DNA from: Marsupella aquatica
Lineage: Eukaryota > Plantae > Marchantiophyta
DNA: 64,000 nt
Assembly: GCA_973895155.1 (NCBI GenBank)
Contig: OZ316893.1
Location: 16,336,645-16,400,644 of the forward strand
Direction: 5' to 3'
Shown here: one piece after another, positions 18,901 to 43,632 of the stretch
Layout: each line of letters starts with the position of its first letter
Numbering within the stretch: position 1 is the first letter of the stretch
Translations under genes and position numbers: made by a program
Notes under the pieces: model-generated
The model's database searches: none
What the model was told of the DNA's origin: nothing
Seen by the model: only the letters and a program-made list of their open reading frames with translations

Positions 18901-19061
18901 AGGTCGTCGAGCTGATTGACCGTAGGAGTTCACAAGAATTTGGCCTTGATAAGCTCTCTTCCTATGAAGGCAAACTTTTGCAGCTCCCATAATCGAGCGA
19001 GCTCCTGCCGTTCTCAAGCTGCCCTTTCTGATTCTTCATCCTTGTAGGTCCCAATGTACTC
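15942..19061 (-). pseudogene. Family A LTR-internal accessory ORF, central and C-terminal part (N-terminus at 36027-36338 beyond the CACTA)
   Basis: Fragments 18548-18742, 17750-18349, 16853-17269, 16572-17189, 16322-16714 and 15942-16190. The 17750-19061 part is near-identical in protein to 62186-63544. Contains an IAxVFGLP motif and a coiled coil. Confidence 0.7.
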
Positions 19062-19084
19062 AGTCACTACAACACTACCTACAC

Positions 19085-19340
19085 CTTTAGCGAACTTGAA
19101 AGCATCGCAAACAACAAAGGAAATCAAAAAACAAAACTCACCTTTGCAAAGTATCGCGCATCGCAATAGAATCGCAAACTACGAAGCCCAAAGGTTTGCA
19201 CCCGGTCTTTCGCAAGACCTTCGCAAGACCTTCGCAACTTGCAACACAAATAGAATCGCAAAGGACTCACATTTAAGCGACTCCTTGGGCGTCGCGATAG
19301 GCTTGCGATAATAATCGACCAGTTCAATATTTGCGATTCC
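19085..19340. repeat. CACTA left subterminal short repeats (TCGCAA/TTGCGA)
   Basis: Dense ATCGCAA/TTCGCAA/TTGCGA motifs in both orientations; similar cluster at ~35530-35950. Confidence 0.7.
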
Positions 19341-20028
19341 CTCGGGGGTTTCACTTCCACAAAAATGGCACATCACGTGCGACGAAGTATAGGGTTGATT
19401 TATTGGTTTGAAGGGAAGACTTAAGAATTTTTGTAGAAGAACAATAGGGTCCTTTAAATTCAATTTTGAGACTTATAAGAACATTAGGGTCTTTTTAACC
19501 AAAATAACTTTATAGGGGTTGAAAAATTAAAAAAAAATCTTATATTTTAGGGGGTCTGAGGCCTAAAAACGTCGCAGGGGATGGGGAGACATCCATATAG
19601 TGAGACCCCTGAGGCAATTCCACAAGTTTGGTAATATGTTTGTGATATTCAATAAATGGTAGTTATGCCATGAAATTTGCTTTGCATTTGTGTGAACTTA
19701 TGTGGTTCGCATAATGTTTGCGATACCTTCAGTATGGTAAATATGCGATTTGGGTTGATCGCATAGGTTTCGCAAGCTGTCTTGAGGCTAGGGTTTAGAT
19801 TTAGAGTTTTGAATTATGGTTGGGGTCTTGTTGCCCAACACGGAGAATGAGGTCTGAATCAAAATTGCTTTATAGAAAATTGATAGGTACACAAAAATTA
19901 GGGTTTCCTAAACCCTAAACCCTAGATGGGTGTCATATGACAAGCTAGGTCCCTATAAGACTACCCATATCAAAACTATATACTACACTAAGTAAATGGG
20001 CATCCCATGGGCACTACACCACCAAGCT

Positions 20029-21994
20029 CTAGAATGGGGTCCTCCTACTCCTTGTCGCCGGCCTCTTCCCCTTGTCCCTCTTGCGACGATCCGGACGTGG
20101 CATAGGAGGTGGTGCTGGCTGCTCCTCCACATCTAGTTCCTCCTCCTCCTCCTCCTCCTCATCCTCTTCCTCCCCCTCCTGCTGGGAAACTCCTCCTACT
20201 GGTCCAGATCCACTACTCCCTCCTACCTTGGGCCCCTTTGTCGTGGTCCCCTCATTGTTCTCATTGGTGCTGCTGGTATCACTGGCATCCTCATCATCCT
20301 GTTTGCACAGCACAACGCCAAATTGGTTTAGGTTTACAGAATGAAAATATAAGTGGATTGGGTGGGAAAAACTGAAGGGGATACATGCACTTACAGTCGC
20401 CAACTCTGCGTCAACCAAGTCAAAGAGATGTTTGGCTCCATGCGCAGCTCCTATCTCCATCTCTTTTGCTGTTATCTTCCTGCGGTACCTCTTATACTAC
20501 CACAACCAAACATTCCAAAACCAAAATAGATTGGGGTTAATATGCCATAAACCCAAGAAAAATGCATGGAGGTGCTAATAGGGTGCTCCCTAACACAAAA
20601 TTGGGCTCAATAACCCTTAGCGGTATTTTTTAAACATAATACACACTTGCGAAACTCCCCGCTTCGCAAATTCAAATAAATTGGCTGTTTGCGAAGTAGT
20701 TTGCGAAGCGGGTTAGTTCGCAATAGCTTCGCATCTATAACTTTAAAAAATGCCATAATAGACTTTGCGAAACATTTGCAAAGCAACCCGCATCGCAAAA
20801 GCTTCGCAAACTCTATTTTTAAAAAATTCCGAGAAATCTCTAAGGCACGCAATGCGTCAGGGTGACCTAAAGTACAAGGCAGGCCATAAGAAAGAAAGAA
20901 GAGGTATGTAGGGGGGGCATTGCAAGTTCGGATAGCAATTGAAAGCAAGGAAATAGAAGCAGGGGAGGAGAGGGCCCACTCACAAAGTGTGCTTTGAGGC
21001 CGGGAAGTCCACCTTGGCCCATCTTGTGCGTGGTCTTGGGCCGTTTGCTGACTCGCTCAACTGCAAGGATGAATTTTTGGGGTGGTGCCCCCACTTCATC
21101 CACAATGTGCTGCATGTGAGACACCTTCTCAGCCATTGCCTTGAGCTCTCGGTCGGACTTCCCGGCCTTCTGTGCCTTGGCTTCCATCTCCTTCCATAAG
21201 AGAAGGTTTCTGGCAACTCTCATCTGCACCTCCACTTTATAAAAGGCATTCCACACGTCCTCAGTGAATTGCAGTGGCCTCCTCACGTTTCTGTACTCCT
21301 CCAAGTTTGCCAGGTAGGCCCTTAACTTCTTCCTATCATGGTACCATGCTTGAGACATTGAATTGGAAATTCTATTTGCAAGCCATTGTTCATCAATCTC
21401 AGCTCCATTTCGAAATGAATCTTTGATTTGACTCATTACTTTCCTCTGGTCTGCCTTGCTGAGTTTCCCCCACTCAACTCCTCGTGCAAAATTGGAGCGC
21501 ACCATAAGCCTGATAGTGCTCTTTGCCCCGGTGTAGGCCAGTTCAGTAGGAATGCCTTCAATCAAGGCAATCATAGGCAGCTTCTTCCTCTCTTCCTCCT
21601 TCTTTCGCTGCTCCTCCCGCTGTGCTCTTATCTCATCTCGTTCCTCTCTCCTCCTCTTCTTTTCTAGGGCTGCAGGTGAGACCACTCCTGCCTTGGCCCT
21701 CTCCTCCTTATGCTTCTTCTCTCTTGCCTTTTGTTGAGCTGCACTCCTTTGCTCCTCCTCCCTTGCAATGTTCCCTGCAACTACTCCCGTTTGCAAGGCT
21801 TGCCCTAGGATTGCACTCAAAGAAGCAATCCCTGCTGGTGCAGTCAAATCTAAGCGGCTCAACTATGCTGCATTGAGGTGCTCAGCCATCAAATCGGTCC
21901 ATCGATTCCTCTCCTGCTCCCCATTGCCTTCATTCCCATTGCCACTGTCACTCACCCTTGCCCCATCACCTCCATTTGCTCCACTGGAATCCAT
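20029..21994 (-). pseudogene. CACTA second gene, TnpA/Ptta-like, 3 exons (21994-20984, 20496-20395, 20298-20029), one premature TAG at 21863-21865
   Basis: GT-AG introns join the exons in frame (~460 codons). EWGKLSKADQRKVMSQIKDSF...WLANRISNSMSQAWYHDRKKLR and HKMGQGG resemble En/Spm TnpA-family proteins. Acidic tail with a basic end. Confidence 0.65.
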
Positions 21995-22391
21995 AGCTAA
22001 GCCACCCCCGAGCACGCGCAAGCTCCCTTCTCCCTCCCTACGCTTGAAATTTGTCAAATGCCGTTGAGTACGCTGCGGCCGAGTGCTAAAGTACAAGCGG
22101 GAAAGACTTGCAAAGCAACCCATTTCGCAATTTGCGATCCTTCTTGTTTCGCATGTAGTTTCTCAATTTTGCGAAACCATTGCAACGTTCAAGGTTTCGC
22201 AACACCTTCGCTCTCTCGCAGAAATGCTCTCGGGCTCTGTTTTTCTGAAGGTCGTGCAAAAGCATACGCTTCGCAAAACTCAATTCTAATTTGTGATGGT
22301 ATTTGCAAAGGAAGTGGCTTCGCAAGACATTGGCAACTCGTCTTGGGGGGGATGTTGGTTTCATTTGAAAGGGTTTTTTTCAAAGGTAAAG

Positions 22392-22473
22392 TGGACCCCT
22401 CTATACTCATATTTGGAATGCTTTTTGGCCATGGACCCCTCTATACTCATATTTGGAATGCTTTTTGGCCATG
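22392..22473 (+). repeat. Perfect 40-bp tandem duplication in the CACTA divergent promoter region
   Basis: TGGACCCCTCTATACTCATATTTGGAATGCTTTTTGGCCA occurs twice in tandem. Confidence 0.9.
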
Positions 22474-23222
22474 TTTTGGGTGTTAGATAATACTTGAAGG
22501 CGGGTTTGAAGGGCTAGGCAGATTTCAGGTTAATGGGTTATGTATGGTGTTGGTTTAGGCTAAGGTTTGGGTTTACATTAGTTTAGAAGAAATAATAAAG
22601 GTGTGGGATTTGGTTTACAAGAAATAAGTAAGGTTTGGGTTTAGGGTTTTAGGGTTTGGGGTTTTTAAATAGAAAGGTCTCTAGGGTTGAAGAAAGGTTT
22701 GGTTTTATGTGTAAGTCAGATTTAGGTTTAATAGGTAGGATGCGGTTTGGGGTTGAAGGTTTGGATAAGACAAAGCAAGGTTTCATGAGATTTATATTGC
22801 AGCCTTTTGGGTTTAAGAGAGGTTCATTGGGTTTATGAATCAAAAAGGGATTGGCATGGGTTTTGCTAACAAAGGAGGGGAATATATGATAGCTTGCAGG
22901 GTGCGGCACTTTTTGATGATTTGATACTAATGCATATGCATTGTGAGAGCCCAGGCATATGAAAGGTAAACAATTTTTTTTAAATTTTAAATTTTAAATT
23001 TTTTGGAAATTAAAATGAAACCCGCGAAAACCCATGGGAAGGGGGGCCCAACAGGGCAACATAAGCGTGGGCAGCATAGTGTGACCCAGGTGAGGCCATA
23101 ATGAGCACCTAAGTGCAAAGGCACAAAGAAGTGTTCCTAGCCAACTAAAGTAGAATGCATAAACAAGTATTGCTTCAACTAAAAAGCCATGCGTCTGGAC
23201 GAGTAACCCACCTAAGACATTC

Positions 23223-26200
23223 CTAACGGACTAATTCTTTGACTCGCAGTAATCTAGTATGTTTTCTACTGGGACCCGAGGCTTCACAGAGGCCATGCAA
23301 GGAGTCTAACATATCTGAAAGGAGTAGATTCAGATTAAACCTTCTACTGTTGACACGATTAAAAAGCTGTTCATTCCGTGCCAGCCAGAGAGTCCACAGC
23401 ACGTGGTAAACCACAAAGACCCGAATGGTTCTCTCAATTTTGGTGCATCCAGTGACTTCCAAGACAGAGAATAAATTCAAATGTCTCCAAGAAGTGGCTC
23501 CCGGAAAAATCCACCCAGCTAGCTGCCAGCACCTCTTAGCGAAGGGACATGTGAAGAAAAGATGAGGAATTGTTTCAAGAACATTGGTGCACAGTAGGCA
23601 GCTTCCATCTCCTTTACCAATCTTTCTAGCTCGTGTTCCAGTGAATAACCCTTGAGCAGCTAATCTCCAAAGGAATAAGCGGCCTTTTAACGGTAAATCA
23701 GATGACCACAGAGCATTCCAGAAATTGTTCCATTCGAGGTCAGAAAAAGAAATGCTCCAAATCCCGTTGAGCCTGAGAGAATCAGAGCCTTTGGGTCGAA
23801 TCAGCTGATACATACGTGCATTGGACAGGGTGAAGCTCTTCAACCATTCACGTTTGTCAGACCAACACCATTGGGCGGCACGAGCTTGGAGATCTCCAAA
23901 GCAATCCACAGTACCTTTGATTTTGTCCACGAATGCTAAACAAAGCTCTCTCGTTGCAACGTCAGCACCACGTATTCTTGCAATTTTAGTAGAAAAGGTT
24001 CGAACAACTGAGTCATGAGAACCATTTAAATCCGACATCGTCCTTACTCCAATCCTCCCGCACATCTTGATAATGGAGCAAATCATGTCATCCTGTAGGT
24101 GCTGAAAACCTTCCAGGCATCTCACAACATCCTCCACGCTCCACCAGCATGCCACGCCAGAAACGCCCGGTGAGAGTATAAGGTGCAGCCGAAGAGACTC
24201 CCAAGCCTTCCACAAACTACCCGTGTAAAAGAGAGCCAAAAGAACGAGGGTAACAGAGCAATAGTCGATCAGAGAGAGAGTATCTATTTCTCCTGATGCA
24301 CTTAGCATTCCTCCATTTTGCCAATCTCAAATTTTCCCCAAAAAGCCTAGCCCATTCAGAGACTTGCGAATCCAGAGCACGGGTGAACCATTGACAGAGT
24401 AAAGCATCAGAGTGACTGCGAAAGTCCTTAAACCCAAGGCCACCGTCCACCTTAGGCCGTGCCATCGTCTTCCACGCTACCAGGGGAATTTTCCGTCCAC
24501 CATTCTCATTATATCCCCAAAGGAAGTCACGGCAGAGAGCCACCAAAGTCTTAGCCAAAGAGTTGGAGCTTCTAAGGAACATCATATGATAGATAGGAAT
24601 AGCTTGCAATACATGCTTAACAAGAATAGTGTGTCCCGTGAAAGAAAGAAAACCGGTGGCCCAAGCAGAAAGTTGAGAACTAATCTTGTCAAGATAGAAG
24701 GTGTGGAGTTGCGAGGAAGAAAGGTCCCATCCCATAGGCGCACCAAGGTATCTCTAAATTTCCCCTTTCCCGCTGATCTTGCAACCAGTGTTAACCAGCC
24801 ATTCCGGAATCTCCTCCAACGCAAGTGGAATGATAGTAGACTTACGTAAGTTGAGCCGAGCACCAGATGCAAGTTCATAACAAGCAATTGCTTCCGTGAC
24901 CTTATTGAAATCTTCTTCAGATGCAGGAATGAACAATCCAAGATCATCTGCAAATAATCTATAACAGATCATGAGGGCCTCAGAGATTTGAATACCTCTA
25001 AGTCGTCCATGCAAAATCTCCTGATCCAGATAGTCCATGAAAGGTTGAGTAGCAATCGCAAATAAAAAAGGAGATAACGGGCAACCTTGACGGACACCAC
25101 GGAGCAACTGGATTTCCTTCGAGAACATGCCATTCAAATGAACCCTGGAGCCCGCGCCAGTGAGTAAGGATCTCACTAAACTAATGTAGTGACTACCGAG
25201 TCCAAGCAAATGCATAGCTTCCCAGATGTAGGAGTGGCAGACTCTGTCGAAGGCCTTCTCAAAGTCCAACATAAGAAAAAGAGAGCTTTTCTTGTTAACT
25301 CGTATCCAGTTGACAGTCAGCCAGGCAACCGAGATGTTTTCTAAAATGTGCCTGCCCGGAATGAATCCGGTTTGCTGAGGACCAATAAGCTTGTGTAGAA
25401 GTGGTTTAAGGCGTAAAGCCAAGATCTTAGCCACAACCTTGTAGATGGTATTGAGCATAGTAAGAGGGCGCCAGTCCTTCAAACATCTTTTATCGGGTTT
25501 CTTCGGGATCAATTTGATCACACCTTCCTTCATGTTAGCCAAAAATTTTCCTGTTCTCCAGAAATCCAGAATCATCTCATAAATGTCTTCTTTCATAAAG
25601 TGCCAACAGGATCTGTACACTTCGGCAGTGATACCATCAGGTCCCGGTGCTTTGTTAGTCGGAAGTAACCAAAGAGTAGAACGAATCTCCTCCATCGATG
25701 GGGGGGATTCCAGTTGCCTAATTTCAGCTGCCGTAAGCGACTTACCAGTGTTAGCAAAGAGTTTGCGTCTAGCTTCTCTGACTTCAAACAAAGTACTAAA
25801 AGCCAAATCCTCCGGCGCCTCGTAAAGAGCACAGTATTGTTTTTCTACTTCTTTCAGAATACTATCCTCTTGAGTTAGTATGTCGCCATTATCAAGAAGT
25901 AGCATAGACATGTTTTCTCTGAGTCTTTTAGCCTTGACCGTAGCAAAGTAGAACTTAGATGGTTCGTCTCCCTGCCCCAGCCATTTGATCCGTGAGAGTC
26001 TCCTGCCCATTTGTACCTCTTCATGTTCAGCTATTCTTACCTGATTGTCCACAGTAGCAAAAACAGCGATGTCTGATTCAGATAGTGAACTAATAAGGGC
26101 TATCTTAAGTGTTCGCAGACGATTCCTCAAGAGAGAGATTTCCACCTCTCGGGCAAGTGGTGCAGATTGTAATTCCTTGTATTTTTCCCGCAGCCTTAAA

Positions 26201-27093
26201 CTAGCCAGATAAAAACGAAGGTGAGGATCCACCACCCGATCTTCTTGCACCTCCCATGCACCGCAAAGTTTTTCCAAACAGCCTTCAACTCTGAGCAGCC
26301 CCACATTGGCCTTGAAATAGGAGGATTTGTGTGAGGTCGTTCCCGACTCCACATTAGAAAGACGAAAGTGAAGAACGATAGGATCGTGATCCGAAAGTGC
26401 AGATCCTCCTTTGTGACAAAGTTCTACAACCGAATCTGTCCACCAGCTTTTTCCACTAAGGTAAAATCGGTCAAGTCTAGACTGCACCATAGACCCATTA
26501 ATTTTCCGTCACCAAGTGAAGTTTGCACCACGAAAGCTCCAAGTAACACCAATAGCATCCTCCAAATCAAGTCTCATTTTAAAAAATCTCCAGAATTCTG
26601 CCTCCCTTCCTTTGATCAGTGGCGATGAACCAGACGAATCATTTTCGCTTTCAGTCCTATTGAAATCCCCACAGATAATCCAGTTGTCGTGAGGAAGGGA
26701 TATTTTGAGTTCATGCCACAGTAGAGCACGGTCTCGAGGGAGATTAGGTGCATACACACTTACTAGACCGAAGTTTCCCAAAGGGTGAGAAACACGCACC
26801 CACACAGCGCGGCCTTTGTCTACTACTCCAGATTGAGTGATAGAAAGAGAGGGGTGAATAAGTAACAAAGTACCCCCGCGTCCGTCATCTGGTTCAGTAG
26901 ATAAATATTGATAGGAAGGTAGAATCAACCGAAGCGCTAGACCTAGTCTAAAAATATCAGCTTTAACCTCTTGTAAAGCTAAGGTAGTCAATGTGGTCTT
27001 GAGCGAAATAATCCAATTTTTCACCACATGTTTCCTGTTCGATTCGCACAGACCACAGACATTCCATGAAGCTATATACAATTCATTATCCAT
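23223..27093 (-). pseudogene. LINE ORF2 (APE endonuclease, RT, zf-RVT), 2 stops and 1 frameshift
   Basis: Endonuclease: SWNVCGL, LQEVK, VYAP, GDFN, SRLDRFY, SDHDP. RT: KAPGPDG, LDFEKAFD, GVRQGCPLSP, FADD. C-terminal CLLC...ETIPHLFFTC. Confidence 0.95.
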
Positions 27094-27228
27094 TTTAGTT
27101 TTCAAAATGTTCTTCCAACTCTCATAAGAATCAGGAAACGAGAGAGGCCATCCCAACAGAAAATGCAGATCAGCAGATCAGCAGATCAGCAGATCCTGAG
27201 GAAAGCCCAAAACAGATTCTTGAAGCAC

Positions 27229-29559
27229 TTATTTGGCACGGCGCCCTGGGGAAGTCAGGACGACCGAATTGGAGTTAGCAGCCGAGCGCGTCCGAATTAA
27301 AGAGTCCGGAGCAAGAGGTTCCCGAGCAGGGTAATGGAGAGAGTGTCCCTTCTTGTTGTCACCCTTTTTGTCCTTCTTCTTCTGGTCGGTAGGTGGAGTT
27401 CGAAGTTCTAGTTTTCTTGCTCGCTCCTTCTTTAACTGGCTCTTAGAAATATATTCCTCATATTCTAACATCTCTATATCAGATCCACCCCGCAGAGAAG
27501 CCTCCTCGACATCAGTGGCAGGTTGAATATCCATGTAATTTGTGTTTGAAGTTGGCTCCACTGCAAGAGAGGAAGGGCTTGGTACAGCAACTAGGGAGTC
27601 CTGCTTGTCAATTTCAGCTGCTCCATGCTTCCTCAAAGCCTGCGAATCAGATATTCTCTCTATAGCAGGCCAATCCACTGCGCCAGGGATAACATCCTGT
27701 GAACTATGATCTTCAAAGAGAGCATTGTCTCTGAGAAGCGGAGGACGATTTTCAGTGGAACGATCAGCCAGGGGAGTCGGAAGGATGGTGGTAGAAGGAG
27801 AAGATTCTTCAATCCCCACCGGGGTGCCAATACTGGGAGAACGCACTTTATCAATCAAAACAGCAGCCGGGGACGAAGTCTGATTTTGATTCAAAGGTGA
27901 CCTGGGGCTAATAACACTACCCCCTCTAGAAAGGGCAATGATATTACCAATGTTAAGGGTATTTCTCTCAACCGTAGGATCAAGAGGATCGACCCTTGGA
28001 GGGCTAGCAGCCGAAGATCCCCTAGCCGCGCCAGCACCAGCTGTCGCAAGGACCTCTTCCGGTGCCCGAGGAGAGGGACCCAAAGGGACCCCCCCAGACT
28101 CAACGTGAATAGAGTCAGAGGACCGAGGAACCACCCTGTCAAAAGCATACGTTTCATCCGCCTCATTGTATGTCCTATCTGGTTCAGGTTCGTCGTTTTT
28201 AATCTCCTCTGTTTCAAAGGCTTTGCACTGTCTGGCTAAATGGCCCCGTTCATTACATCTAAAATAGTGGTAGGGAATGTTCTTGAACGTGATTGGCTGC
28301 CAGATAGTGATATCATCGGTGATCTCGATTCCAACACTTTGAGGGATCTCGCGACACGAATCCCAAAGTATACATGCACGATCATGAGGAAAAGAGCTTT
28401 GAACGTCTCCCTGGATATAATAAAGGAGTTTCCCAAGGGATTCCGCGATTCTTTTTCGACAACCTTCAAGAACCAGAGCACGGAAAGGGATCTCAATCCA
28501 GACAGGTAATTTGGTGTAAGTTTCACTTCCCACATCAAAAGAAGGCTCCCACGAGAAAGTGTGGACAAATTTCCGATCCATGAAAAATGGGGCCAGCTCT
28601 AAAGCTGCATCTCTGTGTTCCGGGTGAACAAACGAAATCATGTAAAAATTCTTGCCCACAAATTTAATCTGCGAAACTGGCCAACCCATGTCGCTGATGA
28701 AGATGCCTTCAACCCAATCACGAAAGACTGGAAGCAGAGGAGTGCGGTCAGTGAAGTAGCACATCATGGTGCAATTGTAGAGCTCCAAAACTGAAAGGGC
28801 CGCCTCATCGAATGACCACTTGAAAGTAGTGTGGAGCTTATTCGGCCAATCTTCCCTGGAATTGTTCGAGATTGTCTTCAGAATATCCAAACATGCTTCT
28901 GAATTTTCACCAAAAAAGTCGTCATGTTCATGGATGGGAGCAAACGTGTTCCAGTGAGCCTGTTGATGGCTGGAAGTAGGTTCAGCATTGTTTTCCAATC
29001 CCCTGTAATTCCTCGATATTCCAAGATCAGGATCTCTACGTTCACCCCAGCGCTCACGTGAAGATTCAGGCTGCACAGGGTCGTTCCGGCGATCTCCAGA
29101 GACAGGGTGAGGTCCCAAGTGAGGAGCAGCATCCGCACCCGGCGGGAAAGCAAGAGGTCTCTCCTCAACGATAGCAGCTTCTTGAAAATCTGCATCCATT
29201 TGATCAGCCCACGAAGGACCATTTCTAGGAATGAATCAAGAAATCCTTGGAGGTTGTTCAGCTGGTGGTCTTCGGTCATGCTTTGCCGAGTTGTCAAAAA
29301 GGTCGTAGGGTGCATTCTTCGGTCCTCCGTGCGCATCCTGCATAGAGAATGTGTTGGGCACATTTCCTCCTATACCCCTCCTGATTTCATCTCCATCACG
29401 TGTATTACCCCCCTCAGACAAGGGTGAGCCATCATTCCTCCAAGAAGTGCCATACTGATTCCTGCCAAATCCTCTTCCAGACAAAGCAGCACCGAGTCTA
29501 CCAGGCCCTCGACCGGCATATGCACGAGTATCCATTCTAGTGCGCCAATTGTAATCCAT
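27229..29559 (-). pseudogene. LINE ORF1 (DUF4283/RRM-like plus zinc knuckle), one in-frame stop at 29236-29238
   Basis: ORFs 29236-29559 and 27229-29199 share a frame. LPVWIEIP and YFRCNERGHLARQC motifs; lies upstream of ORF2. Confidence 0.85.
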
Positions 29560-30243
29560 AGTTCAATGTTGCTTCAGAATAGGGAGCGCAAAGGATCCAA
29601 GGACCGTAACGAATGTCTGTGTTGAGACTACCAAGACCAGAGACTCCGCTACAACATTGTCCTACCTCAAATGCTCAGAAGTTAGTCTAAATGCAATCTA
29701 TCATAGCGCAAAAGGTGTCAAGAAAAAGCTCTGACGCTCCTGGATCCAATGAGACGACGACGTATTTACCAAAAATCTTAAACTTGTGTAAACCCGGAAC
29801 GCAAATGCGAGATGCTCAAGCTCTCACCGCTCTCACCGCTCTTCTCCGCTCCTTCAGCTCAACTTCTTTTGAAAGGTAAACATTGCATGACTGGCTCAAG
29901 TGTTCCTTTCATGTACTTAACACTTTTGGTTGCCACTATGTATAAAGGGGACATGTATATAGGGTTTTTTGTTCTTGTCTGGTCCAGATTATTGTGCTTA
30001 CATATACATGGAATGCTTGCAGCTTTTCCCTCATATTTTCAGATTGGGTTCATTAATTATCTTAGAGCCACAAGACCTATTGGCATTGCTAAGCCCGGGT
30101 CTCATAAAGGTACCTTTTTTATTGCTATGGTCATTTTGGTTTGGGTTTATTGTCATCATTATTTGGGAACTTTGATTTATATCATTTTGTGGTATGTTTT
30201 GGTCATAACATGCCCATTTTAATTATATCTTGTTACAGGGGAT

Positions 30244-31396
30244 ATGTCTTCATCTTCTAAAATCTCCACCATAGACTCGTCCTCCTCTGATGAAGATACA
30301 CCACCTCCACCTCAACATCACACGACCGCACCTCCTCCTCGTGGTCCACCCCGTCAACTTTGTGAATGTTCCAGATGTGTGGGTCAGGTTTCCCAAAAAT
30401 CTTACATATGTGCCCAACATATTGAGAGATATGGGCGTTGTGGACGACATACGGCAGGGGCTTCTTCATCTCATATGGTAAGTGTTATGCCTTAGTTTTC
30501 CTACCCTATTCCCATTACTCAATGGTTGAAGGTTTTTAATTTCACACCTACTTTTGTTTGTTTTGGTTTCGGTGGAATAGGTATCCAATAGGCCTAGACC
30601 TTCGGCACAAGCACCCTATGTCCCATCACAAGGTGTTCTAGATGCTATAGGCAATGCATTCTCACAAGCCTTGGGTCTAGCGGCAAGGCCCACCAGTCCT
30701 AGGGAAGTTGGGGTTGAGGCTATTGTCCCAAGAGGGAGAAAGCATTCCAAGAGGCGGGCCCGAGGGGATACTGATTTGTACAAGGCAGTGGTTATGGGTA
30801 GGTGGGGTGATTGTGAGTTCACTGGCAGATGTGTCCCTATCATCAAGGACTGGGATCCTAAGACTCTTGGTTTGCCACAACAGCTTTCCTATGGTGAGGA
30901 GGTAGAGGTTTGGGGTAGACGTTGGGTTATCAAACCTTCCACACTTGGGGATAGACATGGCTATGGAGTTTTTGCCTGTGAGGACATCATTGTGGACGCC
31001 GAGAGTGGTAGAGGTGGACGCGGCCGAGAGGGGCCTACTTTGTTTCCTTATGGTGGACCCATCTACAAGAGAAGACATTGGAACATGATCCTTGCACAAC
31101 ACCCTGAGTGGAAGACTTATGCATTGGACATTGATACTTTTGATGGAAACACTAGAAGGTATAGTGAGCAGCGTGTCATAGATGGGGACCCCATACGGAC
31201 TGGGAATATTGTTGGTTTCATAAACAGTACCGTGGGGACTCGCCCTAAGCGTAGGCAAAATTGTGAGTGGGTTTTCATTGAGGGTCCTCCGCCAGCACCT
31301 TATGGCCAGACATATCATCATGACCATTGCCTAGTTATAGCGACGAGGACCATTAACTCAGGGGATGAGTTATTTACTCACTATGAGTGGGATTAG
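30244..31396 (+). CDS. SET-domain protein carried by the CACTA (exon 30244-30477 plus exon 30581-31396, ~349 aa)
   Basis: Phase-0 intron GTAAGT...AATAG joins the exons with no stop. SET motifs: IKPSTL..HGYGVFACEDI, FPYGG, IDG...GNIVGFINS...QNC, IATRTINSGDELFTHY. Exon 1 has CECSRC...HIERYG, like the CACTA transposase-associated domain. Confidence 0.8.
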
Positions 31397-34300
31397 GGTT
31401 AAGTTAAGGGTCATAGGTGGTATGTTGCATATAAAATGACACTACATATGGCCTTTGGCCATGTTTTGTATTTGCACCACAACCAATATTATTTCATTTT
31501 TGCACACCCCTAGCCCATTTTTGTGTGTGTTCTCTTTGCAATATAACTTTCAATTGTTTGCTTTGTTTTTAGAATGTGCGACCCTCTCCAAATATGTTAC
31601 CACGGAGATTGAGAGCAACATATCAAGAAATGGGTATGCCAGAAGAAGGACATGGATCAGAGTCACACTCCTCATCAAGTGCTAGTGGAAGCAGTAACCC
31701 TGATGAAGAGGTACCTCGGACGGATGAACAAGTAACTGATGACCAGGATAGAGCCATGGATGACTTTATGGTTGATTGGTTTGGTGCCGACAACCCTGGT
31801 GATGACCTTCCCAATGAAGGGCAGGTGCCCCCCAAGGATCCATGCCCAAGACATACCCCTGAGGGACAACGCCAATGGGAAGAAGCAGAGGAACATGCCC
31901 GAACACCTATCTATGAGGGTGCTCGTTTGAGTCATCTTTTAGCCATCTTGGGGTTGATGAACCTACAGGCCAAACACAAGGCAAGCAATGCCTTGTTATC
32001 TGATATGTTTGCACTTTGCCATGACCTTATGTTACCCACTGAGAATGTGTTGCCAGCAACTTGGAAGGAGGCAAAGAGTGTTCTCTCATCTATTGGCATG
32101 GAATATCATATTGTTCATGCATGTGTGAATGATTGCATGTTATTTCATGGGGCCAATGCAAACATGACACAATGTACAACATGTGATGAGCCTCGCTATG
32201 ACCCCAACATGCTAACAAAGAAGGTGCCAAGGAAGGCTGTTTGTTGGTTTCCCATCATTCCTTGGTTGTTGCACATGTATCGGTGTTCTGACTTGGCAGA
32301 GTTGATGGTATGGCATAAGACTCATCGATCAGAGTTTGGTGTCATGCGGTTGCCAGTTGACTCCCCTGCTCACAAACATATTGAGGCAACATGGCCAGAC
32401 TTTGCACATGATCCTCGCCATGTGAGGCTAGGATTGGCATCTGATGGAGTTAGCCCTCATTCACTTGGAGGAAAGGGGCAACCTACATCAGTTTGGCCTG
32501 TGGTTGTCATGAATTATAACCTCCCATCATGGCTATCCATGAAGAAGGGGTTCCTTTTATTGTCTTTGATTATCCCAGGTCCAAAAAAGGTGAAGAACTT
32601 TGACACTTACTTGGCACTATTGGTTGGAGAACTTCAAAAATTATGGGATGGAGTGTGGGCATATGATGGCAGGAAAATTATAGGAGGTTTTCCACGTGTC
32701 TTTCAATTGAGAGGGATCATTTGTTGGACAATGCATGACTATCCTGGTAAGATGACTTCCATGCCATTTGCAACCCTTTGATAATGTGTAGTTCCTATTG
32801 TTGTTTCTCATGTGACAACCCTAACATAAAGTTTGCATGGTTTGATTTCTTCTGTGTAAGCAGGGTTTGGTTTTGTCTCTGGATTGCAAACTCAGGGGTA
32901 CAAAGCTTGCTCTACTTGTGGCCCAAGCTTAGAGGACATGGCCACATATTGTTCATGGATTAGAAAGATTGTTTATATTGGGCATACAAAGTTTCTTCCC
33001 ATGGGGCATGAGATGAGGTTTGACCCACTTCTATTCTGCTCCTTTGACATGCCATTTGGTGATGAGCGTGAAATTCCTGATGCAACAAGTTTTGCACATT
33101 GGAAGTCACTAGCTGATAGGGTGGCAGACCCAAATGATTCCTTCACCTTGATAGGACAGGTTTGACCAGGTGGAGTATACTAGCCACTTTGCCCTATTGG
33201 TCTGAGTTGAAGATCCGCCATCTCTTAGACCCCATGCACATAGAGGGAAATGTGGGGAAGGCTTTGATAAAGCATTTTTATGGGAAGAAGGACACTAATT
33301 TTAGAGAGGCATGCAAGGAGATGGAAATGCATCCAGATGTTTGGGTGACAACTGATCCTATCACAGGTGTGGAGAATCGTCCTTCTGCTCCTTGGGTGTT
33401 GAGTGTTGGTCAAAGACGTGAATTTCGGAACCGTATAGGAGAGATGCGGTTTCCTACAGGCTATGGTGCCAACCTTCGGAAAGCTTTTGGGATGGAGGAC
33501 AATCACAAGTGGCCACGATATCTGAAGACACATGACTATCATTGCCTATTGCAGCATATATTGCCACTGACAATTATAGGTATAGGGAGTGAAGAAGTGC
33601 AAGATGCCATTTGATCATTGGGTCATTTGTTGAGATGGATATGCTCAAAGGAGATATATGTAGAAGAGATCCCTGGGATGGAGGTATTGGCAGCTGAGGT
33701 GGTATGCAAGTTGGAGAAAGCCCTTCCTCCTTCCTTCTTTGATTGTCAGGTTCATTTACTTGTGCATCTTGTGCGGGAGGTTGCCATTGCTGGTCCAGTG
33801 CATTGTAGATGGATGTATTGGCTTGAGCGTTATATGGCGGTGTTGAAGGCTTATGTACGTAACCGTGCACGGGTGGAGGGAAGCATAGCTACAGGATACT
33901 TGGCAGCAGAGAGTATGTTTTATTGTAGTAACATCTTGGCCACCATTGATCCTACTTGTCCACATACTTGGATGGAGGAAAGAGAAGAGGAGGAGGACCG
34001 TTTAACAGGTGCCACAAAAACACGCATGTTGACATCAACAGAGTGGTCACAATTGACAACATTTATGTTGAGTAATAGTAATATCATGGAGAAATGGAGA
34101 GAGTTTTATGAGAATGCCAAGAGAACAAGTCAAAGAGCAAGAATTTTTCCTAAGATGCATGAGTATATGAAGCAAAAGTTGCTTGAGTTGGATGACATGG
34201 TGACACAAGGAGGAGATGTGTCCCACTTTCCTACCATCACAGATGACGTTCGAACCATTGTTTATGGCCCTTTGAGAGTGGTGACATCCAAGACGGCTAT

Positions 34301-35059
34301 GTGGACACAAGGGAGACACTTCAGGTCCACTAGTACCTAACCTTTCTTCCTCTATTAATTCATGTAGACCTTATTTTGATTAGTTATTTCTATTGTTTAA
34401 AAACTTTCTATTATAATTAATGACATCCATAACTGTAATGTTGGCTTCTATATTTATGCCATAGGCCATGTGGGTTTTGGCTATTTAGGGATGGGTGTCA
34501 TATTTTGATGATTATTACATTAATGGTATCTTTTGTGTAATAAAAATTTGTGGGTTTTGTTAATTTCAGGGTTTCTTCCCTTGATGAGAAGAGGGGTCGT
34601 ACTTTTGATTGTGGAGTTCAAGGGGAATTTTCTCAAAACTCCAGAAGCAGGCGCCATGACAGGAACATTGTTAGAGATGTTGTGCCACACTATGGGAAGA
34701 TAGAGGAGATCTTGGTGGTATCATATGACAACCATTCAAAGTTTGAGGAATATGTTTTCAAGTGCAAGTGGTTCAAAGTGAACCTTGTTGGTCAAAATTG
34801 CACTGTACTTCAAGATGAGAGTGGGTTTACACGGTTGAAGACAAGTGCCACTAGTGTTCAAGCATCTCATTGGCAAACATCAGAACCATTTGCTTTCCCA
34901 TCACACTTGGAGCAATGTTTCTACATTCCATACCCCTTAGACACCGAGTGGTCAATTGTCATCACCTATGTGCCACGTTCTCGTTCCATTGTTTCTGAGA
35001 AGCCAGATGTTATTGTATCAGACCTAGATGACCTTGAGGCCGATGAGGACCAAGTGTGA
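30244..35059 (+). pseudogene. CACTA TnpD-type transposase (exons 30244-30477, 31573-32746, 32864-34324, 34570-35059); frameshift ~33160, stop 33612-33614
   Basis: VHACVNDCMLF, RLGLASDG, SVWPVVVMNYNLP, PGPK, HDYPG|FGFVSG...GYKACSTC, DPMHIEGNV, LKTHDYH, PPSFFD..VHL, WMYWLERYM, EGSI and FKCKWF match Transposase_21, DUF4218 and DUF4216 motifs. GT-AG introns keep frame. Confidence 0.93.
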
Positions 35060-35529
35060 GGGACATATTTATATGCACTTGGGTCCAGCCTAGACATTTG
35101 TTCATGTTATATTTTATTTGTTCATGTTTGGTGATATAAAAAAAAGTATTGTCTATATTTATATTTGCCATTCATTTTTGAAGAGTCATACTCATGACAT
35201 ATGTATTGTATTGTTTTATTGTGATCACTTGTGAATTTTACATGCAACTTTCTATCTAACCTCTGTTGCTCAATATAACTTTATTTCCTACTTATTCCAT
35301 AATCTTCATTGTCACCCTCATGTTTCCCTCCTCCGTGGTACGTCTGTCCCTCCTCCTCCCTTCCTCTTTCTCCTCCCTCCTTCCTCTTCCATTGTACTCC
35401 CTCCCTTTTCCATCCTTCATTGTACCTCCCTCCATCCTCCCTTCCTCTTCCTTCCTGCCCCATCCATATATTGGACCATCCACCCTCTTCATTGTCTCAC
35501 CTCACAAAAATCTTAATTTTTAGTTTGCA

Positions 35530-35950
35530 AACAATTTGCGAAGCTCACAAAATCTCACCGGACTCGCAATTTCTACAAAGCTTTTCGTTTCTCAATATTT
35601 CCATACAATACTCTTTGCAACCTTGTGATGCAAATTCAATCACAAATTTCATATTCTCACCGTTTCGCAAATCTTCCATCCTCTAACATTCTTAAACTTG
35701 TCAAACAAATACTATCGCAAAACAATTTCAATCCAACCTTCTTCGCAAATCTTTACATCAGTTAGTTTTGGAGTCGGCGAGCGATTTCGGCATCTTCAGA
35801 AGGCGCCTTTCCATTCGGCGCATTTCGGTAAAACTTGCAAAATCATTTACTAGCTTCGCAATGTATTAGCGATATAATGCGCTTCAAGTATTATCTTTGC
35901 GATAGGGATAGAATCGCATATTGCGATGCGGGTTGATTTGCAAATTATGC
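35530..35950. repeat. CACTA right subterminal short repeats (TCGCAA/TTGCGA)
   Basis: Many TTCGCAA/ATCGCA/TTGCGA motifs just inside the right TIR. Confidence 0.65.
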
Positions 35951-36449
35951 CAAGCACTGCCCATCGGAAATACAAGAGCGTCGACAAAAATACCTTCACA
36001 AAAGTGTCAAATATGTTGTAGTGAGTTTCCCGTTCGAATAGGCATCCCCAAAAATGAGTAGCTTGATTGACGTTGCTCATACCCTCCTTGAGTTGATAGT
36101 CGGTATCTGTTTCCGCCCAGAGTGCTTGCCTAAGCAGCTAATAGTAGTTGGCTTCTCGTACTCGTCTGCTTAGTTTGTGCTTCCAAATGAGCCGTCGTTC
36201 CTTGCGATCGGTCCTTACCCCCTGGTCTTCCTTCCCGTTGGTTACCCATAGCCGCCGGCACTTAGCGCGCCCTAACCCTACTTGTGTTCCCTGCTGTGGC
36301 GTCCTTACTTTCGGCCTCGGCTCGGGTTCCATAGTCACCCTTGATTGTTTATAATTTCCATTTTTTACTATACTAATGTGTTTTTAAGGTACACTCCTGG
36401 TTTTACCATTTTAACTGGCCTAGTGACTCCTGGCTAGGCATCACAACTA

Positions 36450-37975: not shown

Positions 37976-40014
37976 GAGGAATTGTACGGTGCGAGGAAAC
38001 AGGAAATTTTGCTAGCGAGGCAACATTGTTAGCAAAGCATTTTGGCTGATGAATTTCTCTCACATTCCACGAAAACAATGCCCAAACAGTCTCAGTTTTC
38101 CACCTCTTACAATAATGAAAAGAATATGACAATGAAAAATCGTGCATGATTGTCATAAGTATTCCATACTTGAGCCACACACGTTTTAATCATCTAAAAA
38201 AGATCACCAAAACTAGAAACTTCCATCATAATATGGAACCTCTTTACATGATTGAAAGTGTGGATCGCCAACAACTTCAACAAAAAAAATGGTAAGAGTC
38301 GACTTTGACCAGTACATCCAGTCCTACTTGCTCCTACTTGTTCAGTCATAAACTGTGGTAAGTGGAATAATACAAATGTATATACTTTTATCCTTAAATA
38401 TCAAGATTTGGTCCCATAAAGAATAAACAAAGCGATTTACCAAGGTTTTGTGATGTTTGAAATCTTCAAGCGATTTCGTTGTTGTTTTTCCCTATATAAT
38501 CCTGAAACGATTAGTATGTCACAAATGCTGAAATGAAATTCCTTAGGTTCGGCTTCTTCTCGATAGATTTAAAGGTTTTCTCTTCCCTCTAACTTCCTTA
38601 TACACTTAGTAGTGATCGGTTTTGCGTCATGAAGGTTGGTACAATTCCCATTTCAACTAGATTTCAAAGGCACACCTTAGTTATCCATTCAAATTTATTT
38701 CCTACAACTAATTCAAACATCAAAACTTGAATACTTAAGTTTGATCCATGAAATGTTTGAAATTCAATTGATGTGAGTGGTACAAGTCTTCTCCATTAAA
38801 TTCTTTCTCCTAAGCCCAATTTGGCATGAGAAAAAGACCCACACTTGGTCAAAAATCAATGTTGAAGAAAAGACAATGAATCATGATCTTGGGAGTCCAC
38901 TTGTAAGGCTCCCTCAAAAGGTTTAAGATGCCAAAAGGTTTAGAAGCCTAAAAACCTTTTCTCATCTAAACTTAGGGTACTAAAAGGTAAAATAAGTCTA
39001 AGACTCTCTAAATCTAATTCCTAAAGGTACACTAAACTATGTCCCTCTATATCCTACTCTATCTAACTCATGGAAAGGCTCAAGAGGTGAGAAAAGAGAT
39101 AGAAAACAATTTAAGTAACATATGCCAAAAAACCTTGGAGAATCGGTTTGGGTTATTCTGAAGTTGGTTGTTTGGGACCAAACTGAAATTCTCCTTATAG
39201 CCCTTGATAAGATCTTTCCAACGCACCAAAAATATTCTCAAACCGATATCGGACCGATCCGCAATCGTCCGTCAAAGTTGCTGCCAAAAGTCTAAATCGA
39301 TTTTCCAACTTCCAAAGCGATTCTTCAGCCGGTCTTTTTGCAAAGCGATTCTTCTGCTTCCTCCGGAAGCAATTTCTTTCGGATTTCTTTGAAAGCGATT
39401 GTTTGTCTGAAGTGATTCTTCCTTCCAAACTCAAACTTCTTAGCTTTCTTCCATAACATTCCTTTGAGGCTTAAAATGGATTAAGGGGTGATGGATAAAC
39501 CTAAATAAGCTTCAAGTAAGGTTAAAGTGTTTTAAAATGGATCACTTTCACTCCGTAGTTCCTTTTTACCTTTCCACATAAACTTCATCCTCTGATTCAT
39601 CAGATATGTCACTACTACTAGGATCGCTACTGGTGTCCCTCTCCGTGGACTCGGCAGACTCATCTAAATACTGACGGACTATCCCCGCCTCATTGTCGAT
39701 AAACCTTGAACAATCCAGATATCTTTGAGCACCTCTCATGGACCGAAGTCCTTTCGCCTCCCAAGTCAAGACCACAGGATCTTCATCAACTTGCCTCGCC
39801 GATGTCTCAGCATAGCATGGAAGAGTAAAAGGCTTCTCAGGAGTAACCACAATGGACTCCTGGACTTCCCTCCGAAGACGAAATCTCTCCTCAGAAAACC
39901 AATCCACCCTCCTATCACTGAAGCAACCACCGACATCAGTTGACGAAGAGCAACAAAATGAAGAAAACAAAAGAAACCAAATAGGGAGTCCGACATCAAA
40001 AGAGGCCAAGTACT

Positions 40015-43000
40015 TTACTCCAGGTCGAATTTGTCTTTCTCGCTTGAAGGCCCAGCCTGTTCATCTCCTGGAATCGTGAACTCATCATCCGACCCAACGT
40101 CTTGATTAACCTTGGCTGCCTGATCCCTAATCTGCTTTGCCTTGCTCGAATGCCTCGCAAGAACACTGTTTAAAGTTTTTTGAGCACAGGAATGGAGAAT
40201 GTCCGTGTCCTCAACACCGACAACAAATCTCCCGGAGAATTCTCCGGTAGCAAACGAGCTACCATCACACACAATCCAGTCAAGGACTATGTCTTTGGGC
40301 TTCGTGAGGAATTCCATCACGGCTTGCATGAACCCAATTGAAAGCCTTTTTGATCCAGCAATAGCCGCTGCTGGACAGGGGTCAGTCTTAGGGTAACAAA
40401 CACTCAACATTGACTTATGTCTTGCATCTTCCGAAGACGTCAATGGAACATACGCTGGGTCTTTAGGAATCTTTGCATTAAATTCCACCCGACAAAAAAC
40501 ATCCAGGATGAGAGTGCACACTTGAATAAAAAACCAAAATACATTAGAAATAATGTAAACTTTGTTAGCGAGCTTGCTAGCATTAACTTAGTCGGAAAAA
40601 TAGAAAATTAACACCTAAACCAAATATGTTTGGTAGTTGAAAATTTTCATTTTGTTAGCGACATCGCTAGCATTAAAACTCTCAAGAAATTTAAGGGATA
40701 GCTACCTCGATATCCATATCTGCCCTCCATAAAGGGGTGGACAACAAAACGGTATATTGCTGCACATGTTTGAATTTGTTTTTTTGCTTGACTGCCGTAA
40801 ATATTTGCCTCATGTGATTGAAGTCTGAGCTGTGCAAGACAACAACATATCCGTCGTCTGAAAGCATTGGTCTCATCACTCCAAAAAAATAATATGGGAG
40901 TTTCTCGCTCCAAACATTGCAAGACGGAACCTGTTTGTCTGTAACGTGTGTTCTATGCCCAGTTGGAAGAGAAATGAATCCCAAATGTGCTCCAATCCCA
41001 ACATAAGGCTTTCCATTAATTACGACAGGGTTTGGGCACTCTACGCTCTTCGACATCCCAGTAATCCATCGATCTCCATCTCCCATCCAAGATGGCCTCA
41101 CTTTACTTACGCTAATTGAGTTTGCAGTATCGGTCAAATTGCTACGAGCGAGGAAATGTCGCTGCCCATCCATCTTCAAACCACACATCCGAGCAACACC
41201 TTGAGCAACTGAAACTTCCTCATCGTCCAAATCTGAAAGAATCTGGATGTTCCGCTTTCATTTCAAACGCTTTATACTTCCTAAATCCACTATGCTCTTT
41301 GTTGTGACTTCGGCATCTGGGGACTGAGGTTCTCACCATCATCTGCTCCACTCTTCAAACTCTCAGAAGCCGCTCCCTTCCTCCTCTCTATGAAGCAAAA
41401 GACATTAGTGTCTGTATATTCGACACACATCCGGACTTCAAAATAAAAAGTAACATAAAATTAACAGACTTACTTGGCTTTCCGGAAATCTGGGACCCAT
41501 CTTTGGATGTGTCCTTCAATGCTCCTTTTCTTGGCTTCCATGCTCGACTCCTATCCACTATGGCAGCTACACCAAGACAAGCCTTTTCCATTGCCTTGCA
41601 ACCACCAACTTCAGCATCAGTGGGTGCCAATTTGGACTTGGAGATGTAAGATTTTGGAAGGAATCCTCGATTGATCATGTGAAGAGTTGCTTTCTCTACA
41701 GTGTCAAATGTCACAGACCATTTGTCCGAGTCCAAATACCATGGACAATGAAGAACCTCCCACTCGCTCAATCTCCTTGGAGCTTCACTTCCCTCGCAAG
41801 GAAACATACAATATTCCCCAAACTTATCACTTGTAGGGTCCTCTTTAACTCCGGCTATCCATGGGGAGAAGCAGGCTGGGTAGGACCACTAGTAGAATTT
41901 GTCTGCTACTTCTCTGTCTACAAAAAATTGATACGTGTATCTCTTCACTCTCCTCCGAAACAATGTAATGTCTACCTTCTCTCTTGTCTTGGGTGGCCAA
42001 ATCTGCTTGAAGAAACGAGTTTTCACACGAGTTTGGATATCCTCAAAATCCTCCTCAATGTCAAGGATTAGCGAAGCTTTCGTCTTCTCTGAAGACGTAA
42101 GGATCCTTGACTCAGGGACAGTAGGCATTACCTCATAAACAATTTCAAACATGAGGGAAGATGAAATTGACTCGACTTGCTCCCACACTGCCCAACAATG
42201 AAGCCAAAGCTTAGTCTCACCATCTGAGAATTGACCTGGATGAAAGAATTTCTTCCGAAGCTCAGGACGACACTGTGCCTCCAGGAGTGTACATCGGAGC
42301 TCTGGGGATAAGGAGATCACACTAGTGAACAATCAAGCTCGATCAAGACCACAAGAAACATTTCCCCTGCCTTTGTCATCTGTTCTATGGGCCTCCTTTC
42401 TTTCATTCTCGCAGTAGTTATGCATTTCGACACATTTCTTGAAAAAGTCTCCAAACTCTGGATTTAGTAATGGACCGATCTTTGGAACTTTCACATTCCA
42501 ATCAGCAAGTTGTTCTTTCATCATGTCACGCATTGCTAAGTCCTGTGCAGCCTTGGAGAGGGGCTCGCCTTGAGCCTCCTTAAGAGCAAATTTCTTCTTC
42601 AGGTCCTCGGTCTGCGATGCAATGTTAGCAGCGGATAGAATATAAGTGTAGGCATCCAGCGTCATGTTCTTCAAATACCATGCCGCCTTCCGCACGTTGG
42701 CCATCTTCTGCTGGAAAAGTTTGTAATTCTCAACGTCGATGATATCTTTGTAAATGGATAAGTCATTGTTCAGAATCTTCTAGACGCGTTCAGCCTCCAA
42801 AACCCAGGAATTCTCTACATGACATTGAGTTAACCTGCCACAACATTCCTCATGTTAGCGAGACGCTAGCTGAAAGTGACATGGTAAAAAAGAAATTTTA
42901 GAACTATCTTATCCTGAGAAGTCCCACCTGTTCAATGCGTGCATAGCCGACTCGATCTGAACGAAAGAGTTCTTTTCACCCTTAAAGATCTTGCAGACCA

Positions 43001-43632
43001 CTCGAGGATGGTACTTAATATCATCCGGATGTTCCTCCGCCAGTTGGCTCCACGAATACAATTGGTGGTTTCCATCGAAAACACAAAACATTTTGTCCTT
43101 GAGGATCTGGAAAGAAACATGAGAATCACATTCGCGCTCAAACTCCTTGTTTTGCAACACCCAAATATCATCCCAAGTTTTGCGGATAGCATCGGTACAG
43201 ATCTGGATTTCCCCATCCTCGTTTGTCGTCTGAACGTAAAATTGAGGCGCATCCTCGATGTAACCCTGCGTTTTGAACTCGGACTTCAATGTGTCTATCG
43301 CAGTGGAATCCTTCTGCAGAGACCGGACAATCTGCATGTTCCTCATCCGGCAGAGAGGAATTCTGGGGGGGAGCCAATGCAAATCCAAACTCATTCACTC
43401 CGAACGAGTGAAGATGACGGTTTATGACAACCGTGTAATGTTCCGAAGCGCTCGGATCAAACACAGGAGCAACTACATCTACTGCTGTCACCATCTTGGG
43501 CCGCCTTGGAGTCTTCAATCCCACTGCAAGCGCTTTCTTGTTCGTTGTGGACCTAGTTTCTCTCCTTGTCGACTCCCTCGACTGAAATGATCCTCTCAAA
43601 GAAATACTCTCTGTAGACAACGATGACTCCAT
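40015..43632 (-). pseudogene. MULE accessory gene: N-terminal ParB/Sulfiredoxin-like domain and C-terminal beta-class N6A/N4C DNA-methyltransferase-like fold; spliced, several stops, one frameshift
   Basis: IPLCRM...LKSEFKTQGY...VFDGNHQLYSW (ParB/Srx DGxHR-like). AHLGFISLPTG...RPMLSDDGYVVVLH...FLTKPKDIVLDWIVCDGSSFATGEFSGRFVVGVED (N6_N4_Mtase-like). Introns at 42927-42835, ~41470-41390 and ~40705-40522. Confidence 0.7.

Follow-up and report, generated by a model that had tools for sequence, protein, structure and literature searches.

What does a SET domain do inside the transposase gene of a transposon, and does the transposon make use of it? The question is raised by a 64,000-nt stretch of the genome of the liverwort Marsupella aquatica (GenBank assembly GCA_973895155.1, contig OZ316893.1, positions 16,336,645 to 16,400,644 of the forward strand), hereafter the window, whose positions are counted from its first letter. 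A first-pass annotation of these letters had described a CACTA transposon in which a SET-domain exon lies within the intron of the transposase gene (TnpD). The element belongs to an old bryophyte CACTA family, in a copy that has decayed, and we lean towards the view that its SET exon serves as an alternative last exon, predicted to encode an S-adenosylmethionine (SAM)-dependent lysine methyltransferase whose most likely role is anti-silencing on the element's own chromatin.

One first coding exon and two predicted products

The stretch from 19065 to 36023 is a member of the CACTA/EnSpm superfamily, with inverted CACTA ends, a 3-bp target duplication, subterminal motifs and TnpD domains (Table 1). 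Its 10-bp terminus, CACTACAACA, stands at 19065 and, inverted, at 36014-36023, between the two copies of the duplicated AGT (19062-19064 and 36024-36026). The subterminal hexamers TCGCAA/TTGCGA are concentrated towards both ends, with 11 at 19-20 kb, 9 at 20-21 kb and 8 at 35-36 kb; most other kilobases have 0-2. Near 62500 the window holds an empty site, in a copy of the repeat that flanks the element, where both element flanks align unbroken across the insertion point. A metagenome scan yielded 44 related loci. Most belong to a single family, with proteins matching named ones from Sphagnum, and locus L003 stands apart. In L005, L008/L043, L031 and L042 the left end and its subterminal motifs are identical and the flanks differ, marking four separate insertions. 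The transposase matched Transposase_21 (E 4.5e-37), DUF4218 (E 6.9e-35) and DUF4216 (E 2.4e-8), all above the Pfam cut-off.

The first coding exon carries a motif of the form C-x-C-xx-C-x13-H-x3-G and closes on ATG directly ahead of GTAAGT, and the AG at 30237-30238 suggests a non-coding exon upstream of it. Two T-rich AG acceptors, ending at 30580 and 31572, each open a phase-0 frame; the coordinates and phases by which exon 30244-30477 had been placed in frame with both acceptors (30580/30581 and 31572/31573) all hold. The splice signals support a model, predicted from sequence, in which one first coding exon gives two in-frame products: use of the near acceptor would yield a 349-aa exon 1-SET protein with a conserved stop, and skipping to the far acceptor of equal phase would yield exon 1-TnpD. 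We consider it likely that both of these products are spliced.

Related loci retain these signals. The GT donor at the end of exon 1 is present in all 20 loci that have the exon (as GTAAGT in 17), an in-frame acceptor for SET in 14 of 18, the stop at the identical SET codon in 27 of 28 and the phase-0 AG of the TnpD acceptor in 22 of 25. Between this last acceptor and the first Met, four of five codons keep their residue (N-x-R-P-S), with silent substitutions in two of them. The non-coding parts are less alike: the intron between exon 1 and SET is 111-118 nt long in relatives and aligns poorly, the spacer after the SET stop is 136-147 nt long and diverged, and in one contig of run X12 the intron is swapped for 79 other letters with the exons still alike.

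A transcript structure without mutually exclusive splicing strikes us as highly improbable. In one form of it exon 1 would pair only with SET, with the transposase starting from its own Met on a separate or read-through transcript; in another, exon 1, SET and TnpD would be fused. In its favour are a Met conserved at codon 8 of the TnpD exon, from which the transposase could be translated with no need of exon 1, and the gene models P0030, P0088, P0123 and P0132, which fuse SET sequence to TnpD, the last three, from Riccia, placing it (30-45% identity) ahead of Transposase_21. Two spliced products also have against them that the in-frame SET acceptor is absent from 4 of 18 loci and the TnpD acceptor lost from 3 of 25. 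The conserved phase-0 acceptor and codons upstream of that Met, and the conserved SET stop, argue the other way, and the fused gene models omit some sequence, either from the SET domain or from the beginning of the transposase. Within the SET exon we found no shared phase-0 donor-like site, all shared ones being phase 1, and a three-part fusion via the conserved acceptor is therefore not favoured; an internal donor yielding a SET-TnpD fusion was dropped as a candidate since the shared sites are out of frame with the acceptor. Weak evidence in the same direction is that no longer fused forms were found in the 882-2515 aa range searched. Among the joints listed for contigs of eight runs there was no exact 30477-30581 or 30477-31573 skip; these runs are DNA-like and silent on expression. 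A donor-like GTGAGT at 31263 (Asn-Cys-Glu codons, phase 1) is common to both families, and P0030 seems to use it.

Distribution of the layout in mosses and liverworts

Homologues of the SET exon numbered 42 by word search and 93 cluster representatives by phmmer, and the named ones all belong to Calypogeia, Sphagnum or Riccia, the nearest being from Calypogeia fissa (72% identity). Of the metagenome loci that could be tested, 18 of 19 had exon 1 upstream of SET and all 25 had TnpD downstream, and contigs of other runs bridge exon 1-SET and SET-TnpD. Gene models join the Cys/His motif to SET in Calypogeia fissa (P0003, P0039), Riccia sorocarpa (P0047, P0073, P0087) and Sphagnum (P0007, P0017, P0019, P0026, P0036), as do P0055 (Logan, 2.1-kb contig) and P0174 (ENA, 1.5-kb contig), which hold motif and SET in one frame and are 54% identical. 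Forms with linked motif-SET or SET-TnpD occupy several distant branches of a SET tree, a quick, midpoint-rooted tree of 70 of 77 rows (seven short rows left out) that we did not use for origin. Judged from these arrangements, the layout is old and fixed in a moss and liverwort CACTA family, and the possibility raised in the first-pass annotation that the exon occurs in this copy alone falls away.

Two sets of data fit this picture less well. Nine loci are truncated SET pieces, and L024, L025, L036, L037, L039 and L040 have long flanks with no other part of the element; the gene models are predictions and mutually discordant, with P0017, P0019, P0026 and P0030 splicing inside the SET exon. Searches for relatives in viral and prokaryotic genome contigs gave 26 and 15 candidates, of which none was confirmed, using close-homologue patterns that are blind to distant kin. 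Calypogeia fissa also has four distant members of the SET family (P0116, P0125, P0139, P0158) with other N-termini, made up in P0116 of repeated Cys/His units, and with no TnpD link seen; they perhaps lie on another element or are domesticated.

Selection on the SET exon

Ratios of non-synonymous to synonymous substitution rates (dN/dS) were calculated by the Nei-Gojobori method for the window against 17 loci. For SET residues 64-271 they were 0.22-0.30, with bootstrap upper limits of 0.33-0.48 (seven computed), compared with 0.10-0.21 for parts of the transposase and 0.17-0.23 for exon 1 (18 comparisons). The SET exon is thus under purifying selection between families, on a basis of about two independent contrasts, since 16 of the 17 comparisons are with one family. 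This narrow base counts against our interpretation, as do the higher ratio of 0.37-0.46 between L003 and the main family over residues 12-271 and the near-neutral dN/dS of 0.86 among SET copies within the main family.

Near-neutral decay within a family is what would be seen if the SET segment were a captured host-gene fragment without function, as in Pack-CACTA elements: 12 of the 18 related copies that span the SET exon carry a stop or frameshift in it, and the open frame in the window is no more than chance. We put the probability of this close to nil, and regard it as largely refuted because of the selection signal between families. Moss and liverwort families that diverged deeply have the segment at one and the same position, its splice sites and stop are retained, and its guanine-cytosine (GC) content and CpG depletion resemble those of the transposase exons. 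Copies of the transposase and of exon 1 within the family also decay near-neutrally (0.60-0.74); insertions are expected to decay in this way within a family in which selection acts on the active lineage.

The first-pass annotation had set the open SET frame against a broken TnpD and a broken TnpA-like gene. The lesions are real, those of the transposase being a frameshift near 33150 and a premature stop at 33612-33614 (located against L012), and their use as a sign of selection has to be given up: three lesions in ~1,390 other codons lead one to expect 0.59 in 271 codons, with P(0)=0.56, so the intact SET frame says nothing of selection on this copy. Measured against one set of loci, the SET exon (30770-31393) has a lower synonymous divergence (dS, 0.61-0.89) than the next transposase exon (31900-32750; 1.2-1.3); added constraint at silent positions, inter-family exchange or noise could account for this.

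A SET domain without the canonical His and post-SET

The exon matches the Pfam SET family (PF00856) at 25.6 bits against a curated cut-off of 22.4 (E 1.7e-5), and the motifs read in it earlier (GYGVFA, YGG, GFINS..N, and ELFTHY followed by the stop) are all present. Its conserved folded part spans approximately residues 64-271 (30770-31393) and was modelled from a 77-row alignment with a predicted local distance difference test (pLDDT) score of 91.7 and a predicted template modelling (pTM) score of 0.87; a first model from a shallow full-length alignment (pLDDT 53.9) was set aside. Chlorovirus vSET is a stand-alone minimal SET domain of ~120 aa. The description of the window's domain as likewise minimal was mistaken: ~205 aa are conserved and confidently folded, including a conserved N-terminal hairpin-helix part and insertions, and exon 1 is added to them.

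By structure, the closest matches were yeast Set1 (Z 11.9, root-mean-square deviation 2.7, 124 aligned), PRC2 (11.8), SET8 (11.5) and SET7/9 (11.3), with NSD2 within the range 11.9 to 10, LegAS4 at 10.7, SUVH6 at 10.1 and SUVH9 at 7.5; Foldseek gave a probability of 1.00 to SET8 and others. Giant-virus SET models (template modelling scores 0.40-0.51, 12-23% identity) were no better than cellular SETs, and the named rows that the fold searches gave did not include vSET, which is no evidence against kinship. Against solved structures, the single exon had no phmmer matches and the family profile found LegAS4 best (E 2.5e-6), the next at 0.002. The proposed likeness to viral and bacterial rather than plant SET proteins therefore finds backing in the sequence profile and not in the fold, in which Set1, PRC2, SET8 and SET7/9 tie at the top. 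In an Atlas comparison the SET part fell into its own streptophyte cluster, followed by an unnamed one and then by giant-virus and haptophyte SET clusters at 0.95-0.96, which we treat as leads only. We class the exon product as a SET domain, outside the canonical histone methyltransferase subfamilies.

The canonical motifs of the domain include GxG, RFINH and ELxxxY (as given in PMC3980110). Across rows 24-50% identical, conservation extends to the residues that form the cofactor and lysine sites: the glycines of GxG (G127 in 65 of 70 rows, G129 in 67 of 70), both Asn (N215 in 69 of 77, N227 in 76 of 76), Glu (E263 in 67 of 69) and the tyrosines (Y268 in 62 of 66; Y157, as Tyr or Phe, in 72 of 72). 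The position of the RFINH His is occupied by Ser in 74 rows, Asn in two and Arg in one. The NS for NH that had made activity seem uncertain is thus genuine and family-wide rather than a mark of decay, and it is no bar to activity, for LegAS4 also lacks the His and carries Phe-Ser, not His-Ser, after the motif Asn. Y157 and Y268 align with Tyr148 and Tyr233 of LegAS4, which are reported to contact the target lysine, Tyr233 lying in the active site (PMC10653858), and LegAS4/RomA is reported to methylate H3K14. The LegAS4 structures (PDB 8sr6, 8swi, 5czy) resemble the window's domain in the missing His, in the equal spacing of both Tyr and in having no Cys-rich pre- or post-SET; they differ in sequence (28% identity over 131 residues), and their peptide is held by a post-SET segment together with ankyrin repeats, neither of which is found here. 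The match does not show a common substrate or origin.

We think the SET product somewhat likelier to be catalytically active than not, and several facts weigh against even this. The canonical His is missing in 77 of 77 rows. There is no post-SET, the chain ending three residues beyond the catalytic Tyr268, and 50 of the 62 aligned rows with the catalytic Tyr end within 11 residues of it. LegAS4 is described as binding its peptide via post-SET segment 235-253 (PMC10653858), the flanks of SET are reported to be necessary for activity (PMC3980110), and plant SUVH2/9, which lack a post-SET, reportedly appear inactive (PMC7617993, PMC3898904). The missing post-SET casts a stronger doubt on activity than the missing His.

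These same absences suit an exon 1-SET protein that is a pseudo-enzyme, binding a histone tail or methyl-lysine and serving as a reader, an adaptor or a decoy against host silencing. The SUVH2/9 proteins offer a precedent within the host (PMC7617993, PMC3898904), sharing a SET domain without post-SET, though they are host proteins with SRA and pre-SET domains and, for SUVH9, a lower structural match; and LegAS4 is said to require its post-SET and ankyrin contacts for the peptide (PMC10653858). We nevertheless hold a pseudo-enzyme to be unlikely, since GxG, both Asn, Glu and both Tyr are kept throughout the family, some of which a protein that only binds would probably have lost.

Proposed role of the SET product

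If exon 1-SET is an active enzyme, the fold gives no indication of its substrate, as no SET subfamily stands out; that the fold points to no single histone site also counts against a role on the element's chromatin. The Cys/His motif, which both products would have in common and which is probably zinc-binding, could guide SET onto the DNA of the element or into contact with the TnpA/TnpD complex. We propose tentatively that the motif steers SET to the DNA or partners of the transposase and that a histone on the element serves as substrate. Exon 1 of the window had no Pfam match and its homologue P0087 matched Transpos_assoc (PF13963) weakly (E 0.031, 14.9 bits, below the cut-off of 27.7), and an Atlas comparison of the motif gave nothing usable. 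The earlier label of a transposase-associated motif is sound as to the Cys/His residues, whose spacing fits the Transpos_assoc motif; as to the Pfam family it has the weak match of P0087.

By analogy with VANC and TnpA, the SET product would most likely keep the chromatin of the element permissive. Those accessory factors of transposons whose role has been tested are reported to be anti-silencing (VANC, TnpA; PMC12730594; bioRxiv 10.64898/2026.08.24.746577), and TnpA of Arabidopsis Spm is reported to lower methylation at its own elements (bioRxiv 10.64898/2026.08.24.746577). This record speaks against an active enzyme that methylates TnpD or the TnpA-like protein of the element, or a silencing factor of the host, or that holds copy number down by writing a repressive mark, and we see such an enzyme as quite unlikely. 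It would accord with the absence of a prominent histone-site subfamily among the structural matches (Z 11.9 to 10) and with reports that SET enzymes also act on non-histone proteins (PMC10653858); self-limitation would gain from the splicing itself, since use of the SET exon would divert transcripts from the transposase. A bolder form of the idea, in which an ancient moss and liverwort CACTA clade has an active histone methyltransferase of an undescribed SET subfamily that lacks His and post-SET, made as a splice isoform of the transposase gene and targeted to its own element by a zinc-binding motif, with splice choice deciding between jumping and chromatin marking, is, taken as a whole, rather unlikely.

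Other parts of the element and of the window

The minus-strand accessory open reading frame (ORF) is probably a TnpA-like gene, a name based on its position and resemblance. It is 55% identical to an open ORF of L035, its place and strand are kept in 12 of 44 loci, and its dN/dS is 0.23-0.27 (eight comparisons). In the window it matches no Pfam family, and two intact relatives match only unrelated families, below cut-off. Of the earlier claim of a disrupted TnpA-like gene, the disruption is upheld by the in-frame stop and the identity as TnpA finds no matching Pfam family. Between this ORF and a nested long interspersed nuclear element (LINE) lies an exact 40-nt tandem duplication (22392-22471). 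The LINE has DUF4283, zf-CCHC, RVT_1 and zf-RVT domains (Pfam), a T-rich tail and a 13-bp target duplication (22960-22972 and 29870-29882); a candidate donor at 29876 in the 5' untranslated region (UTR) was dropped as the site falls within this duplication. Because the LINE lies just upstream and the transposase and accessory genes are both broken, the present copy is probably dead. In the transposase gene, a ~150-nt intron of the related family (L010, L012, L013, L031, L032) is absent at window position 33458, by intron loss or gain.

Table 1. Coordinates of the CACTA element and its parts within the window.
Feature	Position	Strand	Description
Whole CACTA/EnSpm element	19065..36023	.	16,959 bp including nested LINE; complete but decayed
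Left end	19065..19340	+	10-bp terminal inverted repeat and TCGCAA/TTGCGA subterminal motifs
Accessory ORF, probably TnpA-like	20945..21958	-	Faces away from transposase gene; one in-frame stop near 21863
Nested LINE retrotransposon	22973..29869	-	6.9 kb, between the two genes, ~370 bp upstream of exon-1 ATG
First coding exon	30244..30477	+	78 codons; Ser/acidic start, Cys/His motif, phase-0 donor GTAAGT at 30478
Predicted intron	30478..30580	+	103 nt, ends in T-rich SET acceptor AG
SET exon	30581..31396	+	816 nt, 271 codons and stop at 31394-31396; variable linker, then folded domain
Spacer	31397..31572	+	176 nt; predicted SET 3' UTR and 3' end of transposase intron
TnpD exons	~31573-32746, 32864-34324, 34570-35059	+	Limits predicted from GT/AG context
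Right end	35536..36023	-	Subterminal motifs and terminal inverted repeat 36014-36023

The CACTA insertion is hosted by a large repeat (11826-19064 and 36017-36445) with an inverted second copy at 55788-63544, 71-90% alike; the long ORFs tested in it had no Pfam matches. At 1-6338 lies a Copia-type long terminal repeat (LTR) retrotransposon with 209-nt repeats at 1 and 6130, a gag and a 970-aa pol frame, whose frames and 99% alike repeats indicate a recent insertion; nine 18-nt tandem units occur in it near 5890-6118. In the region 39500-48400, possibly another large transposon, both strands are rich in ORF fragments, the longest of 565 aa and none with a Pfam match; a 35-nt motif occurs four times (40552, 40642, 44008 and 48279). 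An AT-rich stretch at 53800-54170 contains 97-nt and 33-nt direct repeats.

Relation to known systems and significance

SET cargo is already known from HarbingerS, MuDR, Helentrons and Plavaka, and alternative splicing from CACTA elements; the land-plant form with a shared exon was not found in print. We found no publication on a SET exon in a land-plant CACTA element among what were mostly titles and abstracts, with subscription journals outside the search, and Repbase or supplements may list such bryophyte families. The nearest case is the red-algal Plavaka (EnSpm/CACTA), whose accessory gene PAG2 carries a PF00856 SET domain with a proposed role in chromatin modulation (bioRxiv 10.1101/2025.02.11.637652). 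There too a transposon of the EnSpm superfamily stably carries SET cargo and the function is a proposal; PAG2, as reported, is a separate gene combining an N6-adenine methylase with SET in a three-gene cassette, whereas in the window SET is an exon in the transposase gene, with a shared first coding exon and canonical CACTA ends, in a land plant. No methylase domain accompanies it: by Pfam, SET was the only domain found, both in the exon of the window and in homologues of full length. The SET genes of HarbingerS and oomycete MuDR families (Repbase Reports 2014, cited in PMC12730594) and the proto-Helentron SET, a stand-alone 153-aa ORF close to Clr4 (PMC4067079), are likewise transposon-borne, in other superfamilies and hosts, and the available parts of these accounts describe no exon shared with a transposase; the transposase here is Transposase_21, not Harbinger-type.

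Maize En/Spm and Arabidopsis EN/SPM3 share with the present element, in the accounts available, CACTA ends, a 3-bp duplication, subterminal motifs and TnpD. En/Spm is also reported to make two products from one gene by alternative splicing (PMC13547354), as is predicted here from sequence, and has an accessory factor acting on its own epigenetic state. Its second product is the DNA-binding TnpA, whereas here it would be SET, with the TnpA-like ORF separate and head to head on the opposite strand.

The plant anti-silencing factors with tested roles, VANC and TnpA, are described as DNA-binding regulators, and transposon SET enzymes have, in the reports available, been described from sequence only. 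The family examined here is high in copy number and occurs in mosses and liverworts, for which transformable model species exist, and histone marks written by a transposon on itself would be directly testable in them. The shared first exon offers a concrete mechanism for both targeting and switching, and a SET subfamily without His and post-SET would test what the fold requires for catalysis. Many models named 'SET domain-containing protein' in Sphagnum, Riccia and Calypogeia are parts of transposons, and would inflate counts of host methyltransferases in these bryophytes.

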